DNA of 29,385 bases from an uncultured Thermoflexus sp. (GTDB taxonomy: Bacteria > Chloroflexota > Dehalococcoidia > Lucifugimonadales > Lucifugimonadaceae): positions 1 to 29,385 of the forward strand of contig CAYWBD010000307.1 of assembly GCA_964456315.1 (NCBI GenBank), written 5' to 3'. The position numbers and the translations under genes were made by a program. Positions 2,326-29,069 of the stretch are shown piece after piece (within the stretch, counting starts at the first letter, position 1; every line of letters starts with the position of its first letter). The notes below the pieces were generated by a model. That model was not told where the DNA came from and did not search any database. It was given only the letters and a program-made list of their open reading frames with translations.

Positions 2326-2327
2326 AC

Positions 2328-3362: not shown

Positions 3363-3462
3363 GCCGCTGCGGGGGCCTCACACAGACGTTTCAGACGCGA
3401 CCAGTCCCTAGCCGTAGCGCCCGGCCTGCCGCCGTCCAGCGCAAACGCACCGGAGGTGCCCC

Positions 3463-4581
3463 ATGAAAGTCCCATTCGTTGACCTAAAAGCCCAGTACGC
3501 CACCATCCACGCTGAGATCGATGCCGCCATCAAGCGTGTCATCGACCGGACGAGCTTCATCGGCGGCGAGGAGGTCGCGGCGTTCGACCAGGAGTTCGCG
3601 GCGTACTGCGAAGCGCGCGCCGCCGTGGGAGTCTCGAACGGGACCGAGGCCCTGCGCCTGGCTCTTATGGCCTGCGACATCGGCCCCGGCGATGAGGTGA
3701 TCACCACCCCGTTCACGTTCATCGCCACGTCCGAGGCCATCGTGCAGGTGGGCGCCACGCCGGTCTTCGTGGACATCGACCCCAAGACCCGCAACATCGA
3801 CGCCAGCCTGATCGCGGGGGCCATTACACCGCGCACCCGCGCTGTCATCCCCGTGCACCTGTACGGCTACCCGGCCGAGATGGACGCCATCTGCCGCATC
3901 GCCCGCCAGCACGGCCTCAAGGTGATCGAGGACGCCGCCCAGGCCCACGGCGCCCGTTTCAAGGGCACGCGCGTCGGTAACTTCGGCGATGCCACTTGCT
4001 TCAGCTTCTACCCTGGCAAGAACCTCGGCGCATACGGGGACGCCGGCGCTGTGGTGACCAACGACGAAGCGCTGGCGACGCGCATCCGCCTGTTGCGTGA
4101 CCACGGGCGGCTGGAAAAGTACGAGCACCAGATAATCGGCTACAACTCCCGTCTGGACGGCATCCAGGCCGCCATACTGCGCGTGAAGCTGCAGCGCCTG
4201 GACCAGTGGAACGCGGCCCGCCGCCAGCACAACCACGTCTACCGGGAGCTGTTGCAGGACCTGCCCGTTGTGCTGCCGTTCGAGCAGGCCAACGTTGAGC
4301 CGGTGTACCACCTGTTCGTGGTCAGCTCGCCAGCCCGCGACAAGATCAGGGCGGCACTGGAGAAGGACGGGGTCTCGACGGGTGTGCACTACCCGCTGCC
4401 CCTGCACCTCCAGCCTGCCCTAAAACACCTCGGCTACGGCCAGGGCGACTTCCCGGAGAGCGAACGCGCAGCGAAGGAAGTGCTGTCCCTGCCGATGTTC
4501 CCGGAGATGACCGAGGCGCAGTCGCACGCCGTCGCCTACGCGCTCAAGAAGGCGACAGCGGCGGCGACCGCCGCCCGGTAG
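3463..4581 (+). CDS. DegT/DnrJ/EryC1/StrS PLP-dependent sugar aminotransferase (WbpE-like)
   Basis: [33 protein letters not shown] and [16 protein letters not shown] (PLP lysine). GGAGG Shine-Dalgarno upstream. Confidence 0.93.
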
Positions 4582-4599
4582 CTGGCGCCGCTCGACGAG

Positions 4600-4800
4600 C
4601 CGGCTCGGCTCGGGCCTGTCGAAGGGCGAACGGCCGACGCGCCGTGCCTTACCGATGACCCGGTCGCCTCGGCTGGCCTGTCCTGAGCCGAGCCGAAGGC
4701 CTGAACCCGGCCGAGGGACCGAGTGGCCAGGTCGGCATCCCCGCGACAACGGGAATCCAGGCCTCACCATGACCCTCTCCCGGCTGGAGATAGGCGAGGT
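4600..4800. repeat. Intergenic mosaic of short palindromic REP-like elements
   Basis: Contains variants of three repeat families seen elsewhere in the window: gggcctgtcgaaggg / gtcctgagccgagccgaagg, atccccgcgacaacgggaatcc (dRS3-like) and ccctctccc. Confidence 0.6.
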
Positions 4801-4876
4801 CGCCAGCTCAGTGCGTTACCCTTGATCTCCGGAGCCGCGGCAGGCCTGCGGCCCTCGGGAGATTCAGGAGCAATGC

Positions 4877-5032
4877 ATGCGCACAAAGGCGGTCGTCCTT
4901 TACAAGCAGAAGCAGCCGCCCGTCGTGGAGGAGAACGACCTCGTGACCCGCGTGCGCCCGCTGGACGAGGTCAACGCGGCCTTCGCAGACATGGCGGCTG
5001 GCAACGTCGCACGCACGGTCCTGGTCCCGTGA
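4877..5032 (+). pseudogene. Internally deleted Zn-dependent alcohol dehydrogenase remnant (51-aa ORF joining the N- and C-terminal ends)
   Basis: MRTKAVVLYKQKQPPVVEE resembles the first strand of MDR/Zn-ADH enzymes, and NDLVTRVRPLDEVNAAFADMAAGNVARTVLVP resembles their last ~30 residues. CAGGAG SD at 4865-4870. Not in the ORF track (<60 aa). Confidence 0.75.
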
Positions 5033-5075
5033 CGGCCTCGGGCCGGCCCAGCCGGTTGACGCGGCGCGCTCGTAG

Positions 5076-5591
5076 ATGAACCTGCGCGGTCACGTCTTGC
5101 TCTCCGGCGCGGCAGGCGCTGCCGTGTGGGCGGTCACGGGCGAGGTCAACGCGCTCCCGGCCGCGCTCGCCGCCGGCGTCCTGCCAGACCTCGACCACCT
5201 GCCCGACTATTACCTGCGCTACGTGCGCCGCAACTGGAAGTACCTGTTCCTGCTGCTGCATGGCTGGGAATACGCAGTCGTGGCCGTCGTTGTGTACGCC
5301 GCCTGGGTACGAGAGCCCTGGATGCTCGCCGTGGCGCTCGGCTACCTGACACAGATCGGCGCAGACCAGGTGGTCAACCGCCCGAAATGGCACACCTACC
5401 TCTTCACCGCACGCGCTTTTCACGGCTTCAGAGCGCAGGAGTCACTGGGGAGGGTTGACTACGACTCTTACATGTCGGTCGTGAAGTCCGTGCCGTTCGG
5501 GCGCGCCCGCCTCATCAGATGGTTTGAGAGCCGCCTGCCGCCGCATGAGCACATGCCGAGACGACGACGGGGGCCGGGGGATGCACGCTGA
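5076..5591 (+). CDS. Membrane-bound metal-dependent hydrolase (YdjM/DUF457-like)
   Basis: N-terminal His (GHVLLS), LPDLDH and LLHGW motifs with hydrophobic helices. Confidence 0.7.
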   Translation: MNLRGHVLLSGAAGAAVWAVTGEVNALPAALAAGVLPDLDHLPDYYLRYVRRNWKYLFLLLHGWEYAVVAVVVYAAWVREPWMLAVALGYLTQIGADQVVNRPKWHTYLFTARAFHGFRAQESLGRVDYDSYMSVVKSVPFGRARLIRWFESRLPPHEHMPRRRRGPGDAR

Positions 5592-5617
5592 GGCGAAAGT
5601 GGATTTCGGGACTGGTT

Positions 5618-6478
5618 CTAGACCCAGATGGCGACGGGCTGGCGGGTCCGGGCGGCGAATGCCAGGGCCAGGGCGTCGGCCTTGTCGGGGCTGGGCTGGC
5701 CGCGTGCGCGGAGCGAGTCCTTTGACTCGATCAGTATCTGGCCTGAGCCTGTGAAGCCGTAGCGGACTGTCGATAGCTGTGAGATGAGCTCGGGGTCGTT
5801 GGGGACTTTGATGCGGTGGTTCTCAAAGCGCCAGCGCAGGGCATCGTAGAGCTCGGCGCGCAAGTTGGCGTACTGCTCGCGGTCTGAGGGCCTCGCTGCA
5901 GCGTTGACGCCGGTAATAGCCGGGCCTGCAGCCCTCGGGCCAGGCAGGACGACACGGTGAGGCGCCGCGTCACTTTTCTGGAGTTCGCGGAGCCGGTCTA
6001 CGACGCCTGCGCCGATGCCGGTCTCGTCGATGAACACGGCCGCGGGCTGGTAGGTGCGGATGGCGTTGACGACGCGCCCTGCCGTGGCCATCGTGTCGTC
6101 GCCCCAGTAGGAGGCGATGAAGATGACGCGCTCGTCTTCTCGAACGCATATCGCGGTGCGGTCTGCCCCGAATCGCGCGACGTCGACACCCATGGCCACC
6201 AGGGGTCTCACACGGGGCTGTTCCCGGACGGGCTGTGGCGGGTAGCGAAATGAGGCGTGGCGCCCCAGCCCTGGCTCGGGATACATATGGGAGCGCGATT
6301 CGCTGCCGACGGGCGCGCGGAAGAAGCCCGAAAGGAGGGCGACCCAATCGTCGGCCGAGATCAGTCTCGCCCCCTCACCCTCAGCCTGGGAGGGTGAGGG
6401 GGCGGTGCCGCGGGTGTCACTTGCCGTGGCTGTCACGGGCAGGAATGTGTCGAACGGGTTGCCTGGCTGCGCTGTCAC
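5618..6478 (-). CDS. Phage terminase large subunit, C-terminal RNase H-like nuclease part, with a repeat-derived N-terminal segment
   Basis: GVDVARFGADRT, FIDETGIGAGVVDRL, YANLRAELY and GQPSPDKADALALAF. GTG start overlaps the upstream TGA by 4 nt (GTGA). Confidence 0.85.
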   Translation of the reverse strand: MTAQPGNPFDTFLPVTATASDTRGTAPSPSQAEGEGARLISADDWVALLSGFFRAPVGSESRSHMYPEPGLGRHASFRYPPQPVREQPRVRPLVAMGVDVARFGADRTAICVREDERVIFIASYWGDDTMATAGRVVNAIRTYQPAAVFIDETGIGAGVVDRLRELQKSDAAPHRVVLPGPRAAGPAITGVNAAARPSDREQYANLRAELYDALRWRFENHRIKVPNDPELISQLSTVRYGFTGSGQILIESKDSLRARGQPSPDKADALALAFAARTRQPVAIWV

Positions 6479-7758
6479 ACCGCCGCTCCTTCGAGAGCTT
6501 CATGTCCTTCGAGAGCCTCAGGACGCCGTCCTTCGAGAGCCTCAGGACGCGGTTCTGTTGCTTGTGACACGCGTTCCACCGCGCCGGGGGGGCTGTCGGA
6601 GCCGTCTTGCTGCCGGGCGCGGCCTGTGGCAGAGAGGGCCGGGTCGATTGCCTCCTCGATGCGGGTGAGAGGGATGAGCGTGTCTTCGCTCTGCGAGGGG
6701 AACTCGCCGAGCACTCGGACCTGGTAGCGGGGGTGGTCCTTGCCCCAGTTGGCCGCGGCCTCGGCGACCCATTGCTGGGTAATCAGGCCGGGGACCGCGG
6801 AGTCTGCGTCCTGAGGCTCGCCTGCAACCTCATCATCGCTCGTCCCGAGCGTAGTCGAGGGACCCCGTTCAGCGGCCACCGAAAGCGGAGGGGTACGGGG
6901 CCCTTCGACAGGCTCAGGGCGAGCGGTTGCGAGGCTCAGGGCTTGGGGTCCCTCGCCCCCGTCCACCTCTGCTGTGAGCGGGGATTGCTGACCCCTCACC
7001 CCAACCCTCTCCCGCAAGGGGAGAGGGAGTGAAGGAAGGCGCAGGTTCGGCGTATCAAACGCGGAGATGTGTATGGTGCGCCACAGGCCGCGGCGGGAAT
7101 GGAAGGCGTCGTAGAACGTCCCTTCGCGGCGTGTGGGGTTGCCGATCAGCAGCAGCCTCGCCCTGCCCGTGGTCATCGAGCCTTCGATGGCCTCGTAGAT
7201 CTCCTCGGGGACGCCGGATGCCTCGTCCACGACGAACAGGATGTTGGCGTGGTGGAAGCCCTGGAAGCGCTCCGGGGAGTCCGACGTGAAGCCGCGGGCA
7301 AATCGGGACGGCGAGATGTCGAGCGCGGTCTGGTGGCAGTCGCCGCCGATGAAGGCGGCGTTCCTGGTGTGGATGCGCCTGATCTCGCGCCAGAGGAGCT
7401 CTTTGACCTGGCGTTCTGTGGGCGCGGTGGTGACCGCGATGGCCTCCGTGAAAGACGAGAGCCACCAGACGACGGCGCAAGCGGCGGTATAGGTCTTGCC
7501 TGAGCCGTTACAGGAGCGCACGGCGACGCGGCGGTGGTCCCTTACCGCCTTCAGGATGTCCGCCTGCTTCCTCCACAGCGGACACCCCAGCTCCCCCTCC
7601 ACAAACCCGACCGGGTTCTCGAACCACGCTGCCAGCGCCACCCCCGCCGACGGCCCCTCTCCGTCCCTGCGCCGGGCCGCCGGCGCCGTCCCTGTCCACG
7701 GCCCCTCCCCCTCCCGGCGCCTGTCCGCCCGCTCTCGTGTCGCAACACTCACAACCAC
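6475..7758 (-). CDS. Phage terminase large subunit, N-terminal ATPase part, with an ~81-aa in-frame repeat-derived insert
   Basis: Adenine-binding region LWRKQ, Walker A RSCNGSGKT, TAPTERQ, Walker B FVVDEA, coupling motif LLIGNP and YQVRVLGEF. Confidence 0.85.
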   Translation of the reverse strand: MVVSVATRERADRRREGEGPWTGTAPAARRRDGEGPSAGVALAAWFENPVGFVEGELGCPLWRKQADILKAVRDHRRVAVRSCNGSGKTYTAACAVVWWLSSFTEAIAVTTAPTERQVKELLWREIRRIHTRNAAFIGGDCHQTALDISPSRFARGFTSDSPERFQGFHHANILFVVDEASGVPEEIYEAIEGSMTTGRARLLLIGNPTRREGTFYDAFHSRRGLWRTIHISAFDTPNLRLPSLPLPLRERVGVRGQQSPLTAEVDGGEGPQALSLATARPEPVEGPRTPPLSVAAERGPSTTLGTSDDEVAGEPQDADSAVPGLITQQWVAEAAANWGKDHPRYQVRVLGEFPSQSEDTLIPLTRIEEAIDPALSATGRARQQDGSDSPPGAVERVSQATEPRPEALEGRRPEALEGHEALEGAAV

Positions 7759-7827: not shown

Positions 7828-7936
7828 CCCCTCTCCCCTTGAGGGAGAGGGTCAGGGTGAGGGAGAAGCCCTATCTCCCCCCTCTCCCAACAGGAGAGGG
7901 TCCGAGCCTGCCCCGGCGAAATCCGGGGCCTGAGGG
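7828..7936. repeat. Family A palindromic repeats (CCCTCTCCC-loop-GGGAGAGGG with GGGTGAGGG) plus a CCTGCCCCGGCGAAA(T/G)CCGGGG element
   Basis: Hairpins at 7828-7863 and 7881-7900. The second element recurs at ~11240-11265. Confidence 0.8.
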
Positions 7937-7946
7937 CGAAGCAACC

Positions 7947-8141
7947 GATGCCGTCATTCCTGCGAAAGCGGGAATCCAGCGCCACCCTGTTGCAGACCGC
8001 CCCGTCATTCCTGCGAAAGCAGGAATCCAGCGCCACCCTGTTGCAGACCAATGCCGTCATTCCTGCGAAAGCAGGAATCCAGCGCCACCCTGTTGCAGAC
8101 CGATGCCGTCATTCCTGCGAAAGCGGGAATCCAGCGCCACC
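7947..8141 (+). repeat. Tandem array of 3.8 x ~52-bp units containing a CGTC-tagged, dRS3-like palindrome
   Basis: Units start at 7947, 7999, 8050 and 8102 (partial). Core CGTCATTCCTGCGAAAGC(A/G)GGAATCCAG has the ATTCCY-N8-RGGAAT layout. Inter-core sequence is the same in each unit. Confidence 0.9.
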
Positions 8142-8317
8142 TGCTCCAATCCCCAACTTCCGCCACAACCCCCTCCCCCGTCAACCGCCTCCTGTCACAC
8201 ATCGCCGCCAGCATCACCCAAGCAGTCAGCTGTCCGACACCATTGTTCTTCCGTCCGCGTCGGTACACAAGACGCAGCCGTTGTAGCTACTGTTTCCCAG
8301 CGGTTCCGCGGAAACCT

Positions 8318-8368
8318 TGTATGCCGAAGTGCCACGGATGCTTCGCATCCGTGGCACTTCGGCATACA
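8318..8368. other. Perfect 24-bp inverted repeat with a 3-nt loop at the left edge of the low-GC island
   Basis: tgtatgccgaagtgccacggatgc-TTC-gcatccgtggcacttcggcataca. No clear U-tract follows on either strand. Confidence 0.85.
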
Positions 8369-8411
8369 CTAGCCGTACGTTCCGCCCTGAACGACGGTTG
8401 GAGGATCAGCC

Positions 8412-8903
8412 ATGCGCGTTGAGGTCAATCGGCACACTCCCGACCCGCTCCACCAGAAAATGTTGGCCAGCAGCGTCGAACTGACCCTGCGTCGTTATCA
8501 ACGTACCCGTGATATCGCGCGCTTGGATAACGCGGCATTGCTTCAATGGGTCAAACTGCTTGACGCCGCCTTGGACGCCAACAACGAAACACAACAAGCA
8601 ACGTTCTCTGAATCGCCCCAAGAGAGCAGAGCCAAATCTTTGTCGGTCCTTGATGCTGTGCTTGGTGCGTTAGATTTCACTATTCTGCCCAACGATAATG
8701 CTAGAGATCAACTGCGTATACTTGAACAAACGACGCTTCGATTGTCGGCGGGCGAACAAGTTTCTGATGAGTTATTAAGCTCATTGGTACTCTTCGCCCG
8801 GCGATACGGACGACACTATGACTATATCTTAGTACCCGAGGGAAAGGCTGACGCGCGGATTACTCACACATGGCCGAAAATGCTTCGTCTCGCCTTCTCG
8901 TAG
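8412..8903 (+). CDS. Hypothetical predicted alpha-helical protein (163 aa), first gene of the low-GC island
   Basis: GGAGG SD at 8400-8404 and ATG at 8412. Codon usage is AT-richer than the host's. The 3' end overlaps the next gene by 34 nt. Confidence 0.7.
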   Translation: MRVEVNRHTPDPLHQKMLASSVELTLRRYQRTRDIARLDNAALLQWVKLLDAALDANNETQQATFSESPQESRAKSLSVLDAVLGALDFTILPNDNARDQLRILEQTTLRLSAGEQVSDELLSSLVLFARRYGRHYDYILVPEGKADARITHTWPKMLRLAFS

Positions 8904-10918
8904 GCGAACTCATCTGGCGTTGTAGTGAGTTGACGAAACAACTCAACTCGCTGCAACCTGAGCACTTTGCGAGCGACGTTGGACGCCAACTGCGAGGCGC
9001 GTTGCTTGAGGCTGTAGACCATGTGTCGCTTCAAGTACGTTCTATCGAGCTTGACGCGGCAGCTGGGGCGTCCATTGAAGAGTTGTTCGCAGCGTCTAGT
9101 AAGTTTCATGCCTTCTTGATGTCGATTGATAACCAATGGCTTCCACTCCTAGGTGGTGCAGTCAGTTCGGCGACGCCGTTTGAAGTCACGGTGCCCATCG
9201 AAAGAATTGCAAAGAAGCTTCTAGGCGAATCCCAGTTCATTTTTAACTCGGTCCGTCAACTAAACTACTCGCTTCTACCGGTCGGACAAACATTGCGAGA
9301 TGAATTCGCGCTCATGGGTCTTCAAGAAATTCTTGTACGATCGGGCTTGACGCCGATACTCCACCAGGTCGATGTAGCAGCGGCTCCGCCCGGGGGCGTA
9401 TTATGTCACGCTATTTTAGCGCACGAGATCGGCCACGCGTTATATGTCGCGCATCGTGCTGAGGACCGATTGGTCTCAACTGCTGTGCTTCCTGAACAGT
9501 ATGTGATTGATATCGCTGCCCGAGACTTCCCGACAGTGGAACGGCTGACAGACGGGTCGTCCCGTCCAATCCAGCTCGTTCTGAGCCAAATGAGAGAAGC
9601 ACAACTGCTGTGGACGCGGGCCCGCCTCAAGAAGATCGTCGTACAGTGGTTGGAAGAATTGTATTGCGATGCAGTGGGCGTTGTGTTGCTGGGTCCTGCA
9701 TACGTGTGCGCAATGGGGGAAATGGCAGTTGTTGGTGGCGATATTGATCGAGCGACGGAATCGCATCCACCAGATCGGCTTAGACTAGATTTCGCCCTGC
9801 GTGTTCTGATCCAGTCGGACGACCGTGGGATGAACTACAAGTCCATGAGAGACAAGAGAGCGCTGCCAGCGCTTGCGTCTATGTTGGCGCCGTGGAAGAG
9901 CTTGTTGGACACAGCACCCAGCGTGCAGGCTGAGTTGGAGGCCGACGCAGCCCGCGCCACCATTGACGGGTCACGGTCCGCCGTCATCCAAGAGGTCACG
10001 CGCACCATTCCTGCCGAGCACCAATTCCGACGTACACGATTTCAGCACGACGTACCTCAACTCGTTGAAAAGTTGCTAAACGGAATCCCGCCAACTGAGA
10101 GGATCGTGAAACGACCGTGGAGGATTGATGCGGCTGATTTGCCGTCCATCTTGAACGCCGGGTGGGTAGTCTATGTTAAGTCACATTTGAGCAACGACTC
10201 GCCATTCGACGCTAGCGCGATGAACAGATTCCAACGATTGATGACCAAATCACTAGAGGACTCCGAACTGCGGAGGGGTTTCAGTGTAGCCGCCGCCGGC
10301 CCCCCGTTAACAGGTCAGCCCCTGGGCAATCGCTTGTTTGGCGACGTGCCTGAGCATGAACGATTAATTGTCACACCGTTGTTGGAGCCGGAATCACAGA
10401 TCAAAGAAGGCAGCGAGGCTATTGACCTTCGACTTGGATCCTGGTTCTTAATTCAAGAACGCTCAGAGGTTAGCAAGTTTGACGCCGCGGATCCCAACTT
10501 CGAGGCGGCCAAGGTGACAGTAGATCGCACATTTCGGATCCCATATGGTTCGTCAACGCTGCTTCATCCTGGTCAGTTCATTTTGGGATCGACGCTTGAA
10601 TTCTTAGCGCTTCCAGGTGATATGAGGGGCTATGTAATCGGGCGATCTGGTTGGGGCCGGCTCGGTCTCGTGATCGCGACGGCGACGGGAGTGAATCCCT
10701 ACTACAAAGGGTGCCTCACACTTGAATTGGCCAATGTCGGCGAGGTGCCGATCACTTTGTGGCCGGGTGTTGCTGTCGCACAATTGTTCTTTCATCATGT
10801 GGAACTCCAGGCGCCCGGGCCGACTTCTCCGTATAGCGGGTCAACGCGGCCGGAGTCAAGCCACCTCGATTTGAGGCAAGTCGTGGGGAGACTCAAGGGA
10901 ATGTCTTCACGACGTTGA
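8870..10918 (+). CDS. Fusion protein: N-terminal HExxH zincin-like (metallopeptidase-like) domain plus C-terminal dCTP deaminase (trimeric dUTPase fold)
   Basis: HEIGH (9422-9436), WLEELYCDAVG..LLGPAY and SHPPDRLR in the N-terminal part. C-terminal ~180 aa has AIDLRLG, LHPGQFILGSTLE, GRSGWGRLGL, GCLTLELANVG and PGVAVAQLFF, typical of Dcd. Confidence 0.85.
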   Translation: MAENASSRLLVGELIWRCSELTKQLNSLQPEHFASDVGRQLRGALLEAVDHVSLQVRSIELDAAAGASIEELFAASSKFHAFLMSIDNQWLPLLGGAVSSATPFEVTVPIERIAKKLLGESQFIFNSVRQLNYSLLPVGQTLRDEFALMGLQEILVRSGLTPILHQVDVAAAPPGGVLCHAILAHEIGHALYVAHRAEDRLVSTAVLPEQYVIDIAARDFPTVERLTDGSSRPIQLVLSQMREAQLLWTRARLKKIVVQWLEELYCDAVGVVLLGPAYVCAMGEMAVVGGDIDRATESHPPDRLRLDFALRVLIQSDDRGMNYKSMRDKRALPALASMLAPWKSLLDTAPSVQAELEADAARATIDGSRSAVIQEVTRTIPAEHQFRRTRFQHDVPQLVEKLLNGIPPTERIVKRPWRIDAADLPSILNAGWVVYVKSHLSNDSPFDASAMNRFQRLMTKSLEDSELRRGFSVAAAGPPLTGQPLGNRLFGDVPEHERLIVTPLLEPESQIKEGSEAIDLRLGSWFLIQERSEVSKFDAADPNFEAAKVTVDRTFRIPYGSSTLLHPGQFILGSTLEFLALPGDMRGYVIGRSGWGRLGLVIATATGVNPYYKGCLTLELANVGEVPITLWPGVAVAQLFFHHVELQAPGPTSPYSGSTRPESSHLDLRQVVGRLKGMSSRR

Positions 10919-10953
10919 ACGACCCAGCAACGGGGCCATGGAATTATGAACGA

Positions 10954-11272
10954 CCCTCCAGTGGGAGAGGGCCAGGGTGAGGGTGAAGTCCGGACCCGTC
11001 CAGCATTTTCCGCAGTAGCGCCCTTGGCCGTGCCACCCTTTGTTGACAATACCAGCACACACGTTCTATTTTACAGTCAATGCATCTGTGGTCCTACCGT
11101 CCCGTTGCCTTCCGGGGGCAGCGAGGCGGCAAGCCCGCAGACACGCTCCGGCAGCAAGTTCGCGCGACCGCGCCGCCTGAGCAGGACACACTCGTACTTG
11201 CACTAACTCATCCCCTCTCCCCTTGAGGGAGAGGGCAAAGAGCCTGCCCCGGCGAAAGCCGGGGGTGAGGGG
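10954..11272. repeat. Family A palindromic repeats at the right edge of the island (10954-10983 and 11212-11272)
   Basis: gggagagggccagggtgaggg; cccctctccccttgagggagaggg (same 24-mer as at 7828 and 14685) followed by gagcctgccccggcgaaagccgggggtgagggg. Confidence 0.8.
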
Positions 11273-14638: not shown

Positions 14639-14645
14639 GCAGTTG

Positions 14646-14882
14646 CCCCCGCTCTCTGCAAGGGAGAGGGGTGCCCGTCTTCGTCCCCTCTCCCCTTGAG
14701 GGAGAGGGGCGCCCAACGGAGGCGGGCGCGGGTGAGGGACACTGCTTGTCCCCTCTCCCTGCAAGGGAGAGGGTTCAGGGTGTGGGTGGCGGGCCGCCGC
14801 CGGGGCCCTTCGACAAGCTCAGGGCGAGCGGCAGGCGCACCAGCAGAGCCGCGTCCTTCACCCTCTCCCGGCGGAAGAGGGG
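14646..14882. repeat. Cluster of family A and family B palindromic repeats downstream of sucD
   Basis: Family A hairpins at ~14646-14671, 14685-14710, 14751-14773 and 14856-14882. Family B cccttcgacaagctcagggcgagcgg at 14806-14831. Confidence 0.85.
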
Positions 14883-14956
14883 GCGCGTGGGCGGCTCGGG
14901 GCGAACGGCACCTGGGTGATCGGTGGTCTACTGCGCGCCGCCCCGAACCGCGCCCG

Positions 14957-15169: not shown

Positions 15170-15375
15170 TCTTCGACCCCCGTGCCGGGCGTGGCCCCCG
15201 GACCTGCGCCGACTGGCGGCGCTGACCCCGCAGTGTTGCTTATGTATTCCGGCCTGCCATTGACCCCCGGGCAGGCTGCCGGGCCCGACTAGTCCGGAGG
15301 CTCTCCGGTGGCCATCTCAGGGAGTAAATGGCCCCGATCTGTTAGCCACTCAGGGCTGTTCCGTGCAGACGCCGA

Positions 15376-15412
15376 CCCCTCACCCTGACCCTCTCCCTCA
15401 AGGGGAGAGGGG
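15376..15412. repeat. Family A palindrome immediately downstream of citrate synthase (possible terminator role)
   Basis: cccctcaccctgaccctctccctcaaggggagagggg. Confidence 0.75.
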
Positions 15413-15428
15413 ATGCTGATGCGGCTGC

Positions 15429-16574
15429 CTAGCGGTCCGCGATCGGCACGTAGCTCTGCTCACGCTTTCCCACGTAATGCAACCGCGGCCTGATAAGGAT
15501 GTTGTGCTGGAACTGCTCGACAATCTGCACCGTCCACCCCGGGACGCGGCCGACCGCGAAGATCGGGACAAAGAGGTCCCGCGGGACGCCGAGCAGGTGG
15601 TAGATCACCCCGGCGTAGAAGTCTACGTTGACGTGCACGCCGCGCCGGGCGTAGGGCTGCATCGCCGCGACGACGGCCTCCAGGATGGCGTACCACTGCG
15701 GCTCGCCGCGCTCCTCGGACAGCTTCTTCACGCCCTCGCGCAGGTGGCGGGCCCGCGGGTCCTCCACCTTGTACACGCGGTGTCCGAACCCGGTCACGCG
15801 CTCGCCCTTCGCGTTCAGGTCCTTCACGTACTGCGGGACGCGCGCAGGGTCGCCGATCTCCGTCGCCATCTTCATGACGTCCTCCGCGGCGCCGCCGTGC
15901 GCCGGCCCGGAGAGCGCGGCGATGGCGGAGACCATGGAGGAGTGGAGGTCCGCGCTGGTGCCTGTGACAACGCGGGCGGCAAAAGCTGATGCGTTGGCGC
16001 CGTGCTCGGCGTGGAGGATGAAGTCCTTGTCCATTAGTCGCGCCGTGTCCGGGCTGGGCGCCTTGCCGGTCAGCATAAATAGGAAGTTGGCGGCGTGCCC
16101 GAGCTTGGGGTCCGGTGCGACAGGCTTGCGCTCGTGCCGGATGGCGTTGTGCGCCATGACGATGGTCGGGAACTGCGCGGTCAGTCGCAGCCCCTTGCGC
16201 ACATTCGCAGCCTCGGAGTTGTCGGCGCGGTCCGGGTCAAAAGCCGCCAAAGCGGAAACCGCGGTGCGGAGCACGTCCATGGGGTGGGCGTGCTGGACAG
16301 CGCGGATGACATCGTAGACCGGGGCCGGGACAGCGCGGGAGGCCCTCAGCTCAGCGTCGAATGCGGCCAGCTGCGTGCGGTCCGGGAGGTTGCCGTAGAG
16401 CAGGAGGTAGGCGGTCTCTTCGAACGTGGACCGCTCGGCGAGGTCGTGGATCGAGTAGCCGCGGTATTCCAGGACGCCGGCCTTGCCGTCGATGAAGCTG
16501 GCCTCGGTGCGGTCCAGATAGACATCGGCGAGGCCTCGGCTCAGTGTCACTTCGCCGGTGGCGCCAGTGGTCAA
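15429..16574 (-). CDS. gltA: Citrate synthase (~380-aa type; 2-methylcitrate synthase not excluded)
   Basis: LEYRGYSI, HAEHGANAS, GPAHGGA, GFGHRVYK and NVDFY. Confidence 0.92.
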   Translation of the reverse strand: MTTGATGEVTLSRGLADVYLDRTEASFIDGKAGVLEYRGYSIHDLAERSTFEETAYLLLYGNLPDRTQLAAFDAELRASRAVPAPVYDVIRAVQHAHPMDVLRTAVSALAAFDPDRADNSEAANVRKGLRLTAQFPTIVMAHNAIRHERKPVAPDPKLGHAANFLFMLTGKAPSPDTARLMDKDFILHAEHGANASAFAARVVTGTSADLHSSMVSAIAALSGPAHGGAAEDVMKMATEIGDPARVPQYVKDLNAKGERVTGFGHRVYKVEDPRARHLREGVKKLSEERGEPQWYAILEAVVAAMQPYARRGVHVNVDFYAGVIYHLLGVPRDLFVPIFAVGRVPGWTVQIVEQFQHNILIRPRLHYVGKREQSYVPIADR

Positions 16575-16775: not shown

Positions 16776-16886
16776 GCCCTCTCCCAACGAGAGAGCGTGC
16801 ACGCCCCTGCTCGCTCGCCCCGAGCGGAGCCGAACTGCCACGTCCGCCCGCTCGCCCCGAGCTTGTCGAGGGCCCCGGCCCCGCCC

Positions 16887-18767: not shown

Positions 18768-19118
18768 CTAGCAGCAGGGGCGCGCCCTGGGAGTTATGGT
18801 CCAGCGCACCCGCGGGCGCGGCTGGGGGTCGCGGCGGGACAGGCCGTGCGGCGATGTCGCGATGCCTCGCCAGGAGGCCTGCGGGTTAACAGGCGCGCAG
18901 CCGACCGGCGACACGTTGCGCCAGAAGCCTTGTGGATAGGCGGGCGCGCAGCCGGCCGGCGACACGTTGTCTCGCCTGAAAGTCTGCGTGTTCGCAGGCG
19001 CGCCGCGGGGGGGCGCGATGTCTCGCCAGAAGCCTTGCGGATAGGCGGGCGCGCAGCGGGGCGACGCCGAAACGTACCGGCTGCGAAGGCGGGCTATCAG
19101 CTTCGACTCGGCGTGCAT
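18768..19118 (-). CDS. Putative small repeat protein with four 17-18-aa units (CAPAYPQGFWR...), or a noncoding tRNA-linked repeat
   Basis: Repeat cores start at 18867, 18918, 18972 and 19023 (periods 51/54/51, all multiples of 3). The two differences between the two PAYPQGFWR copies are synonymous in this frame. No SD. Confidence 0.4.
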   Translation of the reverse strand: MHAESKLIARLRSRYVSASPRCAPAYPQGFWRDIAPPRGAPANTQTFRRDNVSPAGCAPAYPQGFWRNVSPVGCAPVNPQASWRGIATSPHGLSRRDPQPRPRVRWTITPRARPCC

Positions 19119-19149: not shown

Positions 19150-19226
19150 TGGTGGGCAGTAGAGGGCTCGAACCTCTGACCTCAGCGATGTCAACGCTGC
19201 GCTCTAACCAGCTGAGCTAACCGCCC
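19150..19226 (-). tRNA. tRNA-Val (anticodon GAC), 77 nt, CCA encoded
   Basis: GGGCGGT/ACTGCCC acceptor stem, GCTC/GAGC D stem, CAGCG-TTGACAT-CGCTG anticodon arm, AGAGG-TTCGAGC-CCTCT T arm and ACCA end. A TAGAAT -10-like box lies 9 nt upstream. Confidence 0.97.
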
Positions 19227-20635: not shown

Positions 20636-22417
20636 CTAAGTAGCGGAGCGCCCTCGTCGTAGCCCCCTGCCCGGGAACACGCCCGTGTGGCGGCCCTGGT
20701 CTATGACCACCTTGCCGTTGACGATGACGTACGGGATGCCCTCCGGGTAGACCTTCGGGTCCGCCTTGCTCGCACGCGTCTTCACTGTGTGTTTGTCGAA
20801 TATCACGACGTCCGCCTTAAAACCGTCTCGCAGCACGCCCCGGTCCGGCAGGCCCAGCCGCTGCGCCGGGAACGAGGTCATCTTGCGCACCGCCTCTGGC
20901 AGCCGCAGGTGCTTCTCAGCCCGCACAAACTCGGCGAGCACTACCGGGAAGCAGCCGTACGTGCGCGGGTTGGGCATGTCGCCGAAGAGGATGGCGTCTG
21001 AGGCGACCATCCCGTACGGGTGCGCCACAAACGCAGGCAGCGTGTGCGCGTTCGTGCCGAGGCCGACTGTCGAGATGCCCAGGCCCTCCTCGGCGAGCAG
21101 GTCGAAGAGCGCGTCGTACGGGTCCTTGCCCAGCGCGTTGGCGACCTCGGCGATCGAGTGGCCCTCGTGCTGCTTGTTGTGCGGCAGCTTGAAGTTTGTG
21201 AGCCAGTTCTCCTCGAAGCGACGACGGGGCCCTTCGACGGGCTCAAGGCGAGTGGCGCTCGGTCCCTGAGGCTCTCGAAGGGCCGACCCCTTCGAGCCAC
21301 CTGCGCCATGCGGCGGTCCCTGAGGCTCCCGAAGGGCCGACCGCTTCGAGCCACCTGCGGCAAGTCTGGCGCTTTGCGGCCCTTCGGGAGCCTCAGGGAC
21401 CGCGGCGCGGTACTCGTACCCAAGCTCGCCCCGCTCCATGTCACGTCGCATCCGGTCACGGTCACGGAGGTCGCGCAGGGCGCGCTTTAGCCGCTCCGGG
21501 CCCCCGTCCATGGCCCACTGCGGCAGCATGATCGTCACCCGTGTGCCCGAGTACGGGTACGTGTAGCAGTCGAACGTGACGTCCAGCCCCTCATCACGGG
21601 AGCGCTCGACCAGGCCTATGTAATCGAGGTGCGAACCCACTCCCTGCTGCCCCTGCCGGTAGTGCGTCAGGTGCACGCCTATGCCGGACTGGCGGCCGAT
21701 CTCGACCGCCTCTTCCCACGGCGCCAGCAGGCCGGTCTTGAGCAGGCTGGCGCGGGTGTGCGTGTGGTAGAACCCGCCGAGGCGCGCCGTCGTCTGGCAC
21801 AGGGCTACCAACTCCGCGGTGTCTGCAAACGAACCGGGCGGGTAGTCAAGGCCCGTCGACAGTCCCCAGGCGCCCTCTTCCATGGCCTCACGCACGACCG
21901 CCTGCATGTCGGCGGTCTCGGCCCGCGTCGCCGGGCGGTTGTCCCACCCCACGCCCCAGATGCGCACCGGCGAGTTGCCCAGGATGTAGGCGACGTTGAC
22001 CGACCCGCGGCCGTCGTACTTGCGCAGCAGCTCCGCGACCGTGAGCCAGTCTGCGGGCATGGGCGGCCAATCGTTCAGGCCGCAGTCGAGCTCGATGAAG
22101 CGGTGCAGCTCTGCCTGCGTCTTGAACGGCGCGACAGAGTTGCCGTCTATGCCAATAAGCTCGGTCGTGACGCCCTGGCGCACTTTGGGCAGGTGCTCCG
22201 GCTCCCGCAGGAGGGTGAGCCCGCCGTGGGAGTGCAGGTCTATGAAGCCCGGACAGACGACATGGCCCGAGGCGTTTATCTCACGGGCGGCCTGGATGCC
22301 GGACGCATCTCCGCGGTGGATGTGGAGCGTGTCCCCCTCGACGAGCACCGTCCCGGAGTAGCCAGGGCTGCCCGTGCCGTCGATTATCTCCCCGCCGGTG
22401 ATTTTCAGGTCTAGCAA
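20636..22417 (-). CDS. N-acyl-D-amino-acid deacylase / D-aminoacylase-like amidohydrolase with a 58-aa in-frame repeat insert
   Basis: LDLKITGGEIIDGTG, PGFIDLHSH, GAWGLSTGLDYPPG, YHTHTR, HPYGMVASD, PRTYGCF, RKMTSFPAQRLGL and ADVVIFD. Start re-called at TTG 22417. Confidence 0.9.
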   Translation of the reverse strand: MLDLKITGGEIIDGTGSPGYSGTVLVEGDTLHIHRGDASGIQAAREINASGHVVCPGFIDLHSHGGLTLLREPEHLPKVRQGVTTELIGIDGNSVAPFKTQAELHRFIELDCGLNDWPPMPADWLTVAELLRKYDGRGSVNVAYILGNSPVRIWGVGWDNRPATRAETADMQAVVREAMEEGAWGLSTGLDYPPGSFADTAELVALCQTTARLGGFYHTHTRASLLKTGLLAPWEEAVEIGRQSGIGVHLTHYRQGQQGVGSHLDYIGLVERSRDEGLDVTFDCYTYPYSGTRVTIMLPQWAMDGGPERLKRALRDLRDRDRMRRDMERGELGYEYRAAVPEAPEGPQSARLAAGGSKRSALREPQGPPHGAGGSKGSALREPQGPSATRLEPVEGPRRRFEENWLTNFKLPHNKQHEGHSIAEVANALGKDPYDALFDLLAEEGLGISTVGLGTNAHTLPAFVAHPYGMVASDAILFGDMPNPRTYGCFPVVLAEFVRAEKHLRLPEAVRKMTSFPAQRLGLPDRGVLRDGFKADVVIFDKHTVKTRASKADPKVYPEGIPYVIVNGKVVIDQGRHTGVFPGRGLRRGRSAT

Positions 22418-22443
22418 AGCGCAAGCCGCGCCGCGCGCAGAAA

Positions 22444-22711
22444 GAGATTCTTCACTGCGGCCTCCGGCCCTCCGTTCAGAGTGACATGCCAGGCGCGACA
22501 TGACGCACACGCCCGACGGAGTCTTTATGAGGCCCGCGGGCGTGCGCGTCAACACACCGCAATGTCATTCTGAGCGGAGGCCCGGAGGGCCGCAGCGAAG
22601 AATCTAGATCAGACAGCCACGCGGCCGTCACGTCATGCCTGACATCGCCACAACCGTGACGCGTCGCTGTTCGACCTAGATCCTTCGGGCCTGCGGCCCT
22701 CAGGATGACAT
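22444..22711. mobile_element. Family D MITE-like element (22562-22711) plus an inverted half-copy (22444-22487)
   Basis: Termini ATGTCATTCTGAG...CTCAGGATGACAT with internal CGAAGAATCT / AGATCCTTCG. Related to the copy at 26597-26726. Confidence 0.75.
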
Positions 22712-25834: not shown

Positions 25835-26566
25835 GTGCCCAAGAACAAGGTTGTCAAGAGTTTCAAGGACGCCGTCGCCGATATCCCCAGCGGCGCAACG
25901 GTCATGATCGGCGGCTTCGGCGGCGCCGGCGGCCAGCCCACGCGCCTCATGCTCGCACTGCGCGACCACGGCGTGCGTGACCTCACACTCATCGGCAACG
26001 TAGCCGGCATCTCGAAGGTCACCGGCTACGGCTGGCCGAAGGGCATGGACCCCGTCGACCAGGGCATGTTCTTCGCCAGCGGGCAGGCAAAGAAGATCAT
26101 CTGCTCGTTCCCAGTGCCCGGCACGACGAACCCGCAGTCGGAGATCGAGCAGGCCTGGCGCGCCGGCAGGGCGGAGGTCGTGATCGTGCCGCAGGGCACC
26201 CTCATCGAGCGCATCCGCGCAGCCGGCGCGGGCATACCGGCCTTCTACACGCCCACCGGCGCGGGCACGCCGGTCGCAGACGGCAAGGAGGTGCGCGTGT
26301 TCGACGGCCGCGAGCACCTGCTGGAGCACGCCCTGCACGCCGACTACGCGCTCATCCGCGCAAAGGTCGCCGACACGCACGGCAACCTGATGTACGTGGG
26401 CACGTCGCGCGCCTTCAACCCGGCGATGGCGACCGCGGCCAGGGTGGTCATCGCAGAGGTGGACGAGGTCGTGGCGCCGGGCGGCATAGACCCCGAGCGC
26501 GTCGGCACGCCGGGCGTGTTCGTGGACCGCATCGTGGCCCGCGAACCCGGGGACCCGTTGCCGTGA
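25835..26566 (+). CDS. 3-oxoacid CoA-transferase subunit A (ScoA/PcaI-like)
   Basis: AVADIPSGATVMIGGFG, PQGTLIERIRAAGAGIPAFYTPTG and PGVFVDRIV. GTG 25835 lies 8 nt after a TATCAT box, so it may be leaderless. Confidence 0.9.
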   Translation: MPKNKVVKSFKDAVADIPSGATVMIGGFGGAGGQPTRLMLALRDHGVRDLTLIGNVAGISKVTGYGWPKGMDPVDQGMFFASGQAKKIICSFPVPGTTNPQSEIEQAWRAGRAEVVIVPQGTLIERIRAAGAGIPAFYTPTGAGTPVADGKEVRVFDGREHLLEHALHADYALIRAKVADTHGNLMYVGTSRAFNPAMATAARVVIAEVDEVVAPGGIDPERVGTPGVFVDRIVAREPGDPLP

Positions 26567-26596
26567 GTCATCTTGTGTGCGTCCGACAAGGCCCCC

Positions 26597-26726
26597 ATGT
26601 CATTCTGAGCGGAGGCCCGAATGGCCGGAGCGAAGAATCTCGTTCGTGTTTGACTGTGTCCTCCGGACGACTGTACGGGAAGAGATTCTTCGTCCCTCCG
26701 CTGTGCTCCGGGACTCAGAATGACAT
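26597..26726. mobile_element. Family D MITE-like element (130 bp) between the CoA-transferase A and B genes
   Basis: Perfect 13-bp TIR ATGTCATTCTGAG / CTCAGAATGACAT and internal inverted pair CGAAGAATCTC / GAGATTCTTCG. Confidence 0.8.
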
Positions 26727-26773
26727 CATGCGCGTCTCCCCTGTCATCTCGGCCGCAGCCAAAAGCCCGACCC

Positions 26774-27454
26774 ATGCCTGACCCCGCGCCGCGCCTCACC
26801 CGCAACGACATCGCCCGCCGCGTGGCGCGGGAACTGCCCGACGGCGCCGTCGTGAACCTCGGCATCGGCATCCCCGCCCTCTGCGCCAACTTTGTGCCGC
26901 CCGGCGTCGAGGTGCGCTACATGGCCGAGAACGGCGTCATGGGCTTCGGTGAGCACTACCCCGACGGCGAGGGCGACCCCGATGTCATGGACGCCGGCGG
27001 GAAGTTCCCGCGGCGCGTGCCCGGCATGGCGTTCTTCGACTCCATGACCGCGTTCGCCATGATCCGCGGCGGCCACATAGACGTGACCGTGCTGGGCGCG
27101 CTACAGGTGTCCCGGGAGGGCGACCTGGCGAACTGGATGGTCCCGCAGCGCGGCATCGGCTCCATCGGCGGCGCGATGGACCTGGCCGCCAACACCCGGC
27201 GCGTCATCATCGCCATGGAGCATACCGCGAAGGGCGACGCTGCCAAGATCGTCGAGGCGTGCACCTACCCGCTCACCGCGCGACGCTGCGTCAGCATGAT
27301 CGTCACCGACATCGCGGTCATCGACGTGCTGCCCGACGGCCGCGGATTATTGCTGCGCGAAGTCGCTCCGGGCTGGGACGCGGCCGCGGTACAGGCCGTT
27401 AGCGGCGCAAGGCTGGCGGTCTCTTCTGCACTGAAGTCCATCGCCGCGACCTGA
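26774..27454 (+). CDS. 3-oxoacid CoA-transferase subunit B (ScoB/PcaJ-like)
   Basis: IARRVARELPDGAVVNLGIGIP, catalytic AENG, GGHIDVTVLGALQVS and IGGAMDLA. Start re-called at ATG 26774. Confidence 0.92.
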   Translation: MPDPAPRLTRNDIARRVARELPDGAVVNLGIGIPALCANFVPPGVEVRYMAENGVMGFGEHYPDGEGDPDVMDAGGKFPRRVPGMAFFDSMTAFAMIRGGHIDVTVLGALQVSREGDLANWMVPQRGIGSIGGAMDLAANTRRVIIAMEHTAKGDAAKIVEACTYPLTARRCVSMIVTDIAVIDVLPDGRGLLLREVAPGWDAAAVQAVSGARLAVSSALKSIAAT

Positions 27455-27527
27455 ATCCCCTGACACAGCCGGTTCTTGTCCGCGCCGCGCAGTTCGCCCT
27501 GACCGCCCGCTGTGCGAAACTTGACCG

Positions 27528-29069
27528 ATGTTTGAGTCTCTGACGGAAAAGCTGACCGCCACGTTCGGGCGCCTCTCGGGCAAGGGGAAACTATCGGAGC
27601 AGGATGTGGACGAGGCGCTGCGCGAGGTCCGCCTGGCGCTGCTGGAGGCGGACGTTGACTTCAAGGTGGCCCGCGCGCTCGTCGACGCGGTGCGCCAGCG
27701 GGCGGTCAGCGAGAAGGTGTTCGCATCGCTGACGCCGGGCCAGACAGTGGTGAAGCTCGTCAGCGCAGAGCTGGTCAGGGTGCTGAGCGGGGAAGCCCCC
27801 TCTCCCTCACAGGGAGAGAGTCAGGGAGGGAGTGCGTCCGTTCCCTCTCCCCTTGCGGGAGAGGGTCAGGGTGAGGGGTCGGGACGGGTCGGGACGGGGC
27901 CCCTCGACAAGCTCGGGGCGAGCGGAGCAGCCCATGTCCCGGCGAGCGAAGGCACCCCTGTACGCACTGTGGCGGGCCTTCGTCGTGCAGACACTCCGCC
28001 CAGCGTCGTCATGCTCGTCGGCCTCCAGGGCTCCGGCAAGACGACCATGGCCGCCAAGCTCGCTCTCCGCCTCAAGCACGAAGCCCGCAGCGACCGCCGC
28101 GCCCCGCCGCCGGTCATGCTCGCCGCGCTGGACCTTCGCCGGCCCGCCGCCATAGACCAGCTCGTACAGCTCGGCAAGCAGATAGACGTGCCTGTCTACC
28201 ACGAGCCCGCCGCAGGCAACTCCGCGGTCGAGGTCGCAAAGCGCGCCGTCGCAAAGGCCCGCGCTGAAGGCATCTTCTGGCTCATCCTGGACACCGGTGG
28301 CCGCCTGCACATAGACGACGAGCTCATGACCGAGCTTGAGCAGGTCCGCGACGCCACCGGCCCGGTCGAGTCGCTCCTGGTCGTAGACGCCATGACCGGG
28401 CAGGACGCAGTGCGGTCCGGCTCGGAGTTCCACCGGCGCATCGGCCTCACCGGGACCATCATCACCAAGATGGACGGCGACGCCCGCGGTGGCGCGGCCC
28501 TGTCCATGCGCGCCGTGACCGGCCTGCCCGTGAAGTTCATCGGCGTCAGCGAGAAGCCGGACGGCATCGAGGAGTTCTTCCCGGACCGCATCGCCTCTCG
28601 CATCCTGGGCATGGGCGATGTGCAGACGCTTATCGAGAAGGCGCAGGGCCAGTTCGACACCGACCAGGCCCGCAGGATCGAACAGAAGCTCAAGAAGAAC
28701 CAGTTCGACCTCGACGACCTGTTGGAGCAGTTCCGGGCCATCAAGAAGATGGGGCCGCTGGCGGACATCCTGGGCATGGTGCCGGGCATGGGCGGCCTCA
28801 AGGCGGCCAAGGCGCTGCGGGACACCGACGACCGCAAGATCCTCCAGGTCGAGGCGATCATCCTTTCCATGACGCCGCGCGAGCGCCGTGAGCCGAAGCT
28901 GATCAACGGGTCGCGCCGCAAGCGCATCGCCAACGGGTCCGGCACTTCGCCCGCGCAGGTGAACGCGCTCTTGAACCAGTTCACGCAGATGCAAAAGGTG
29001 ATGAAGAAGCTGTCCACGCCCGGCGGCAAACGCGCCCTCATGGGCATGATGCGCGGAATCGGGCGGTAA
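27528..29069 (+). CDS. ffh: Signal recognition particle protein Ffh with an ~58-aa in-frame repeat-derived insert between the N and G domains
   Basis: MFESLTEKL, ALLEADV, GLQGSGKTT, DTGGR, DAMTGQDA, TKMDGDARGGAALS, RIASRILGMGD and Met-rich M domain (SRRKRIANGSG). Confidence 0.97.
   Translation: MFESLTEKLTATFGRLSGKGKLSEQDVDEALREVRLALLEADVDFKVARALVDAVRQRAVSEKVFASLTPGQTVVKLVSAELVRVLSGEAPSPSQGESQGGSASVPSPLAGEGQGEGSGRVGTGPLDKLGASGAAHVPASEGTPVRTVAGLRRADTPPSVVMLVGLQGSGKTTMAAKLALRLKHEARSDRRAPPPVMLAALDLRRPAAIDQLVQLGKQIDVPVYHEPAAGNSAVEVAKRAVAKARAEGIFWLILDTGGRLHIDDELMTELEQVRDATGPVESLLVVDAMTGQDAVRSGSEFHRRIGLTGTIITKMDGDARGGAALSMRAVTGLPVKFIGVSEKPDGIEEFFPDRIASRILGMGDVQTLIEKAQGQFDTDQARRIEQKLKKNQFDLDDLLEQFRAIKKMGPLADILGMVPGMGGLKAAKALRDTDDRKILQVEAIILSMTPRERREPKLINGSRRKRIANGSGTSPAQVNALLNQFTQMQKVMKKLSTPGGKRALMGMMRGIGR

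Follow-up and report, generated by a model that had tools for sequence, protein, structure and literature searches.

The element treated here is an in-frame insert of repeat DNA within ffh, the gene for the essential GTPase of the signal recognition particle (SRP), on a 29,385-nt contig of an uncultured Thermoflexus sp. of the Dehalococcoidia (Chloroflexota) (assembly GCA_964456315.1, contig CAYWBD010000307.1; the whole stretch is referred to as the window). One of its repeat families, family A, is best matched among described repeats by the motif 5'-CCCTCNCCC N3-6 GGGNGAGGG N3 GGGNGAGGG-3', which Holder et al. (NAR 2015, PMC4666352) named TMECO and which had before been known as BoxC or PIT element. 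TMECO forms an intrastrand triplex in vitro, has no linked transposase, and occurs in 23 copies in E. coli K-12, all between genes, and in 3610 copies over 262 proteobacterial genomes (PMC4666352). That paper cites earlier BoxC/PIT work by Bachellier and by Maher and describes TMECO loci as hypervariable and unusually rearranged among E. coli strains.

Three further kinds of repeat bear comparison. According to Di Nocera et al. (BMC Genomics 2013, PMC3733652), repetitive extragenic palindromes (REPs), tagged GTAG or CGTC, are palindromic units of 20–40 bp that often form clusters and lie mostly outside genes. The same paper places REPs inside known genes of several species, with clusters encoding 43–82 aa (Thauera, Rickettsia conorii) and intragenic inserts probably lying in flexible linkers or loops, and reports that recB of two Xanthomonas species carries REPs that differ from each other at approximately the same position. 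Rickettsia palindromic elements (RPEs) are in-frame elements in unrelated housekeeping genes whose peptides are believed to suit the fold; the RPE-1 type is about 100–150 bp long, encodes a conserved peptide, and belongs to an obligate intracellular alphaproteobacterium (PMC10969869). Transposable elements of the miniature inverted-repeat type (MITEs) within open reading frames (ORFs) also give in-frame fusions, as with ERIC in enterobacteria and QMITE in Coxiella (PMC10969869, PMC5896051).

The gene map of the window was built from GC content at third codon positions and from Pfam; ffh is laid out as follows:

27528–29069, plus strand: ffh (SRP54 homologue), 513 aa; an intact ORF in the ORF list, insert included
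Ffh residues 5–82: SRP54_N domain (Pfam)
Ffh residues 158–361: SRP54 GTPase domain (Pfam)
Ffh residues 392–492: SRP_SPB, the signal-peptide-binding domain (Pfam)
27798–27974, plus strand: in-frame insert, about 58–59 codons (177 nt), PSPSQGESQGGSASVPSPLAGEGQGEGSGRVGTGPLDKLGASGAAHVPASEGTPVRTVA, delimited by orthologue alignment, extraction, and the gap against PDB Ffh

The three domains (PF02881, PF00448, and PF02978) stand in the expected N, G, M order, all far above their cut-offs, and the protein matches PDB Ffh entries at E-values down to 6e-131. The insert directly follows the conserved LGGE motif (…VLSGEA before, GLRRAD after), between the last N-domain helix (N4) and the G domain's first strand (beta1). 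Against Bacillus subtilis Ffh (PDB 7o5b_g), query residues 2–90 align with chain residues 4–92 and query residues 154–498 with 98–434, so that 63 residues occupy the N–G junction in the query versus 5 in the solved chain. An earlier note on this DNA, made from the sequence alone, had claimed 58 extra residues between the N and G domains, and Pfam, the orthologue alignment, and the PDB gap all bear this out. Residues 90–143 have a predicted local distance difference test score (pLDDT) below 50 and no secondary structure in an AlphaFold2 model based on a 16-sequence alignment, with the adjoining N and G domains as usual; the insert is predicted to form a disordered surface loop. Tryptic peptides predicted from it include VGTGPLDK, LGASGAAHVPASEGTPVR, and VLSGEAPSPSQGESQGGSASVPSPLAGEGQGEGSGR.

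Most of the insert is repeat DNA: nucleotides 27798–27925 consist of one degenerate family A copy, one perfect family A copy, and one family B copy. The family A unit is a hairpin-plus-tail of 35–37 nt and the family B unit is 28 nt long. The parts are:

27798–27832, plus strand: copy 1 of family A, BoxC/TMECO unit in degenerate form, CCCTCTCCC-TCACA-GGGAGAGAG-TCA-GGGAGGGAG, translated PSPSQGESQGG
27843–27879, plus strand: copy 2 of family A, BoxC/TMECO unit in perfect form, CCCTCTCCC-CTTGC-GGGAGAGGG-TCA-GGGTGAGGG-GT, translated PSPLAGEGQGEG
27876–27895, plus strand: tandem 10-nt duplication (GGGTCGGGAC twice), linking the family A tail to family B, read from the sequence
27898–27925, plus strand: family B copy, GGCCCCTCGACAAGCTCGGGGCGAGCGG, translated GPLDKLGASG
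27926–27974, plus strand: insert tail of 49 nt without repeat, AAHVPASEGTPVRTVA, ending in PVRTVA

The two family A hairpins and the family B copy are those described in the earlier note, whose coordinates were right to 2–3 nt. Copy 1 and the reference copy at 7829–7863 are 77% identical, and copy 1 has three mismatches to the published pattern; its hairpin (27798–27820, with an 8-bp stem) is followed by a degenerate tail to 27832, and its folding energy is no better than that of shuffled sequences. Copy 2 has a predicted 9-bp hairpin of -9.7 kcal/mol (z = -2.1). The RNA fold of the whole insert does not exceed that of shuffled sequence in stability (z = -1.7). No Rfam match at E <= 1 and no intein, intron, or RNA-family signature was found at the ffh insert, nor were terminal inverted repeats or duplicated flanks seen there.

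The window was scanned with the family A pattern CCCTCNCCC-N3-6-GGGNGAGGG-N3-GGGNGAGGG alongside 100 shuffled sequences. Nucleotides 27843–27877 fit it exactly, as one of four exact matches in the window versus none in the 100 shuffles; the other three are:

7829–7863: intergenic family A copy
15377–15411: intergenic family A copy
6993–7027: family A copy inside the repeat insert of a terminase-like ORF

A BLAST search with 27836–27885 gave 95.2% identity over 42 nt and a match in each of 5426 complete E. coli genomes (5426/5426); the median number of places in a genome is 17, with no annotated feature underneath. Set against the E. coli copies that PMC4666352 lists in its Table 1, the ffh copy agrees at 32–33 of 37–38 positions. 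Judged by its sequence, family A is the published BoxC/PIT/TMECO intrastrand-triplex motif and not an unknown element, which corrects the earlier note. Like TMECO, family A is present in many dispersed copies and has no transposase linked to it; the two share the sequence pattern and have loci that vary between close relatives. Two differences concern location: the E. coli copies are reported to be always intergenic, whereas family A in the window lies in frame inside conserved genes, and the motif has been catalogued in proteobacterial genomes while family A occurs here in a genome of the Dehalococcoidia. The intergenic location describes where BoxC has been found and not its nature, and family A is still filed as BoxC/TMECO. 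The triplex was seen in vitro in the published case, while here it is represented by the sequence and a predicted hairpin.

The family A unit, tail included, also occurs in loci of an alphaproteobacterial (L038) and a deltaproteobacterial (L061) metagenome-assembled genome. The exact BoxC/TMECO pattern is further found in at least 120 IMG/VR viral or prophage contigs (loci L074–L153 among them), where it may sit in phage DNA proper or in host flanks.

Copies related to those in ffh lie between other genes of the window, two of them directly downstream of a stop codon:

14643–14885, plus strand: intergenic cluster in the order A-A-A-B-A, downstream of sucD (which ends at 14638)
15372–15415, minus strand: BoxC/TMECO copy in intergenic DNA, directly downstream of the stop codon of citrate synthase; within the window, the one most closely related to the ffh copy
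15429–16574, minus strand: citrate synthase ORF
16848–16886, minus strand: copy of family B in intergenic DNA, directly downstream of the stop codon of thrS (16887)

The ffh family A copy (27843–27882) is 98% complementary to 15372–15411, and the ffh family B copy with its 5' extension is 90% complementary to 16848–16886. A consensus scan for family B found copies at 27898–27925, 14804–14831, 16848–16875 (minus strand), and 6899–6926, each with at most one mismatch to a degenerate consensus (four versus none expected, and none in the 100 shuffles), which agrees with the earlier claim that the ffh copy is nearly identical to intergenic copies near 14806 and 16848. The copies in ffh and at 16848 have in common a paired T>C / A>G change that preserves a 5-bp stem (GCCCY/RGGGC). 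Near sucD, family A (14751–14785) is followed by family B (14804–14831) in the same order and at nearly the same spacing as in ffh, which suggests that the A+B block of ffh may have arrived as a composite. Over the window and the related loci, about three quarters of repeat copies are intergenic and about one quarter lie within genes, at few sites. The bases 5' of family A copies are often (C/G/A)(G/A)TC, many of them NGTC or ATC, and those of the ffh copy are CGTT; family B has no terminal tag, and a further family, C (7953–8134), carries CGTC.

The window protein was compared with the nine closest Ffh orthologues, which come from eight other assemblies, are 67–78% identical to it, and measure 483–523 aa. 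All nine carry an insert at exactly the same site, of 30–66 aa (90–198 nt), always in frame and free of stops, and the inserts differ in sequence to the point of being hardly alignable among themselves. The next group of Ffh proteins (about 60% identity, 444–448 aa) is without it. At NCBI, close proteins carry the name of uncultured Dehalococcoidia. A neighbour-joining tree computed without the insert columns recovers the insert-bearing clade as monophyletic, and PVRTVA at the end of the insert is kept across that clade as P(V/A)R(T/L)VA. The gene order CoA-transferase A, CoA-transferase B, ffh is common to the window and several orthologue loci, and ffh outside the insert is strongly conserved. 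A family A hairpin occurs in six of the nine orthologue inserts, in either orientation (loci are given by L numbers):

L062 and L070: forward family A copy
L071: family A hairpin without tail, its orientation unassignable by the scan
L065: decayed family A copy
L069: reverse family A copy
L064: two reverse family A copies, flanking a B/E-like unit

The earlier note proposed this comparison, and would have given up its claim had close relatives shared the long linker with no likeness to intergenic repeats; the long linker is present in 9/9 and recognisable family A in 6/9. In one respect the note has to be revised: the insert is no single recent event but a site that varies over the whole clade. 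Forward-copy L070 (whose insert also holds a unit of a further family, E) and reverse-copy L064 are neighbours in the tree, as are L071 and L072, a sister pair that differs by 66 nt with a hairpin lying within the difference. The ffh family A copy is identical at 35/37 positions between the window and L062, against 76% for the surrounding N-domain codons and 53% for their third positions. This conserved unit could reflect recent re-insertion, conversion from other copies, or constraint at the DNA level.

Two apparent and much longer Ffh matches in Actinomycetota (L016 and L052) were rejected, being in reality ftsY followed by ffh in another frame, with no insert. As a separate observation, the G domain of the insert-bearing clade has in common a small insertion of 6–7 aa (EARSDRRAPPP; 28083–28110, Ffh residues about 186–195) directly past the P-loop helix, which the next-closest Ffh proteins are without.

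Repeat insertion extends beyond ffh, with at least three other genes alike:

20636–22555, minus strand: D-aminoacylase (Amidohydro_3) gene
21219–21411, minus strand: in-frame repeat insert of about 60 aa in D-aminoacylase, with family E hairpins and a family B copy
5618–7758, minus strand: terminase-large-subunit-like gene (phrog_2), in two ORFs split at 6475–6478, one of them being 6475–7758
26720–27454: CoA-transferase B of the window, without insert
L062, 3003–3902; L065, 9006–9815; L069, 9155–9937: CoA-transferase B with insert

The D-aminoacylase insert contains a near-perfect hairpin of 106 nt with 30-bp inverted arms (DNA folding -48 kcal/mol, z = -8.6). In eight D-aminoacylase orthologues this site is occupied by differing repeat inserts, and no insert occurs in the wider family of 524 aa; the L069 protein (82% identical), for instance, has a different insert at the same site, with family A read in another frame (SPLPLRERVRVRG). 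The repeat-derived insert of CoA-transferase B lies past MEHTAK (e.g. PSPSQGEGQGVG) in L062, L065, and L069 and is absent from the window and L067, so that its presence is polymorphic between orthologues of about 82% identity. The terminase-like gene carries families A and B in frame between its ATPase and nuclease parts (residues about 244–330, LPLPLRERVGVRG...ARPEPVEGP), with further repeats at 6504–6551 adjoining the split, and may be a decaying prophage remnant. Within genes, both orientations of family A occur, and at least two of its frames are read (ffh, PSPLAGEGQGEG; D-aminoacylase of L069, SPLPLRERVRVRG). By direct reading, the insertion sites in ffh, D-aminoacylase, and CoA-transferase B have no obvious target sequence in common. 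The description of the repeats as palindromic holds for family A and for the family E dimer and less so for family B, which is weakly palindromic and by itself folds no better than chance (z about 0). Rfam matches to miRNA models at 21306–21411 were set aside as chance matches to the long hairpin, and Rfam gave no other repeat-related hits.

The observations are probably best explained by repeat DNA that was copied into a permissive surface loop of Ffh and kept while it was in frame and free of stops, at a site that has been changing ever since. The genome of this Dehalococcoidia lineage would be peppered with short, GC-rich, structured repeats (BoxC/TMECO, that is family A, and the REP-like families B and E), and in the ancestor of the clade such DNA would have been copied into ffh directly past LGGE, in the N–G surface loop. 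In the frame used the units have no stop (CCC-TCT-CCC... gives PSP...GEGQGEG) and their summed length is divisible by three, so that Ffh would be made whole, with 30–66 additional residues, enriched in Pro, Ser, Gly, Glu, and Ala, looping out as a disordered tether. Unstable once inserted, the DNA would then gain, lose, invert, and decay units, possibly driven by triplex or hairpin structures, leaving a different insert in each orthologue at one codon position, while selection would purge only versions that break the frame or the fold. By analogy, the instability of TMECO loci in E. coli would fit both this turnover and the filtering by frame and fold. We take the insert peptide to be a tolerated and presumably neutral passenger, not an adaptation; the mode of repeat copying is something we infer, with no transposase linked to BoxC. 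The central proposal of the earlier note, that intergenic repeat DNA is translated in frame in ffh by an RPE-like process, is supported in this form by the repeat copies, the open ORF, the insert-free next-closest lineages, and the like inserts of at least three other genes.

Several points weigh against this explanation or narrow it. The assembly was checked independently in Logan unitigs of run X1 (a freshwater sediment metagenome), with DNA and RNA runs, and unitig contigs cover 27400–27869 and 27897–28400 with 0 differences each, confirming both ffh/repeat junctions. However, 27870–27896 (27 nt, including the tandem duplication) is bridged by no read or unitig, a narrower second search included, because words of the family A unit reach a depth of 1200–7300 versus about 7 in the flanks, with loose ends at 27841/27843 and 27878–27880. 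For the middle of the insert, the exact length is therefore that of the original assembly, whereas the presence of repeats in ffh is confirmed independently; the misassembly check that the earlier note had called for succeeds at the junctions and falls short in between. Translation of the insert and its retention in mature Ffh are read from the DNA. The inserts of L067, L068, and L072 contain no recognisable repeat, and a repeat origin is assumed for them. No transposase (RAYT, the REP-associated tyrosine transposase, or other) was found among the window ORFs scanned, which bears on the copying mechanism. Finally, no clade member is without the insert, which would also fit a linker that has grown useful or required.

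That an assembler spliced repeat reads of the metagenome into ffh is scarcely credible. The family A unit is 150–1000 times deeper than the flanks and the 27-nt gap is unbridged, but at both junctions unitigs continue from unique ffh DNA into repeat DNA with 0 mismatches, the ORF is open through the insert, and a one-off chimera is excluded by nine orthologues from eight other assemblies with inserts at the same codon. Just as improbable is that the segment is removed from the RNA or protein, or that ffh is a pseudogene. Nothing speaks for this directly beyond the fact that RNA-seq unitigs end at the repeats; the DNA and RNA runs examined showed no joint that bypasses the insert, no intein, intron, or RNA-family signature was found, and inserts that are in frame and free of stops in 10/10 cases, in a gene otherwise strongly conserved, make sense only if translated.

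Two other histories accept the repeats and the translation. One holds that the long N–G linker is an adaptation of the clade, a spacer or docking segment for which repeats were merely raw material and which is now selected for length and composition. All ten clade members do keep at least 30 extra residues with no reversion, and the P(V/A)R(T/L)VA end is conserved, yet neither the length (30–66 aa) nor the sequence is, the segment is predicted to be disordered, and like inserts occur in unrelated enzymes, in CoA-transferase B as a presence/absence polymorphism. The repeat nucleotides are moreover better conserved than nearby synonymous sites, which points to a cause at the DNA rather than the protein level, and we regard selection on the linker as quite unlikely. 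The other, which is somewhat less doubtful though still not favoured, is that these loop codons are a preferred target and that each lineage acquired its elements separately. It would account for the opposite orientations in sister lineages (L070 and L064) and for ffh copies that are 95% identical between distant orthologues; it sits poorly with the failure to find an insert-free clade member, with a right-hand insert end common to all members, and with insertion sites in three genes that have no obvious target sequence in common. It differs from a single ancestral insertion followed by turnover in history only, not in kind.

Compared with the known systems, the kind of event seen here, in-frame intragenic insertion of repeats, is already known from REPs and RPEs, and what is new is the element type and the speed of turnover at the site. 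The earlier note had cited the Rickettsia RPEs as precedent; in-frame REP insertions outside Rickettsia had also already been described (PMC3733652), and the process is less unprecedented than was implied. The window repeats resemble REPs as imperfect palindromes of 20–40 bp that are high in copy number and mostly extragenic; they may differ in the terminal tag, families A and B having no clear GTAG or CGTC. In the available passages of PMC3733652, ffh is not among the genes named, and recB is the single example to set beside one-site turnover over ten orthologues and in several genes. What recalls RPEs is that conserved genes with no relation to one another (ffh, D-aminoacylase, CoA-transferase B, and the terminase-like gene) gain peptides from repeats inserted in frame. 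No sequence relationship to RPEs was seen, though no search was aimed at one. The comparison fails on size and make-up, the window units being 28–40 nt (REP-sized) and arranged as a mosaic of two families with non-repeat DNA rather than as a conserved-peptide element of about 100–150 bp, and the host here belongs to a free-living sediment or groundwater lineage. MITEs are likewise non-autonomous repeats found within ORFs, but they have terminal inverted repeats and target-site duplications, neither of which was found for families A and B; the sole MITE-like piece is the 106-nt hairpin of the D-aminoacylase insert.

This case shows that BoxC/TMECO, a widespread motif reported as strictly intergenic in E. 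coli, can enter reading frames and, as read from the DNA, be translated far outside the Proteobacteria. Ten orthologues with ten different fillers of 30–66 aa at one loop indicate that the N–G linker of Ffh tolerates large disordered insertions, and the pattern in three further genes offers natural comparative support for the view that the repeats destabilise their surroundings. A more general proposal, that BoxC-type repeats are a self-renewing source of instability that generates and reshuffles disordered linkers at fixed loops of conserved proteins across the clade, the essential SRP GTPase included, is speculative and on present evidence unlikely. On that reading, the identity of about 95% between E. 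coli and Chloroflexota, with the repeat better conserved than synonymous sites even within a gene, would imply either a mechanism of copying or transfer across phyla or a function at the DNA level that overrides coding constraints. For annotation, low-complexity segments rich in Pro, Ser, Gly, and Glu in such genomes may be translated repeat DNA.

Other repeats of the window do not touch ffh. Four tandem units of about 52 nt at 7944–8154 each carry a CGTC-tagged hairpin (CCGTCATTCCTGCGAAAGCGGGAATCCAG, family C); the array resembles a CGTC-type REP array, and single family C copies occur in L064. Repeat clusters also flank a low-GC island at 8000–11000 (0.55 versus about 0.68), which holds an unannotated ORF of 163 aa and the gene for a protein of 682 aa whose C-terminal domain is dCTP-deaminase-like (PF22769). 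PADLOC gave no hit for the dCTP-deaminase-like gene, and a role in phage defence is a guess. Between the thrS start and a tRNA-Val gene (19150–19226, minus strand), two tandem 102-nt units that are 77% identical lie at 18860–19066, with no match in Rfam.

A literature search with the repeat-encoded peptides and with DNA strings of families B, D, and E returned nothing relevant. Family D, ATGTCATTCTGAGCGGAGGCCCG...GCGAAGAATC, is present at 22557–22610 and 26592–26645 in copies that are 87% identical, and gives rise to spurious N-terminal ORF extensions, for example the first 45 or so codons of the D-aminoacylase ORF and the ORF at 26563–26781; the long N-terminal extensions in the window are ORF-calling artefacts that arise from repeats.

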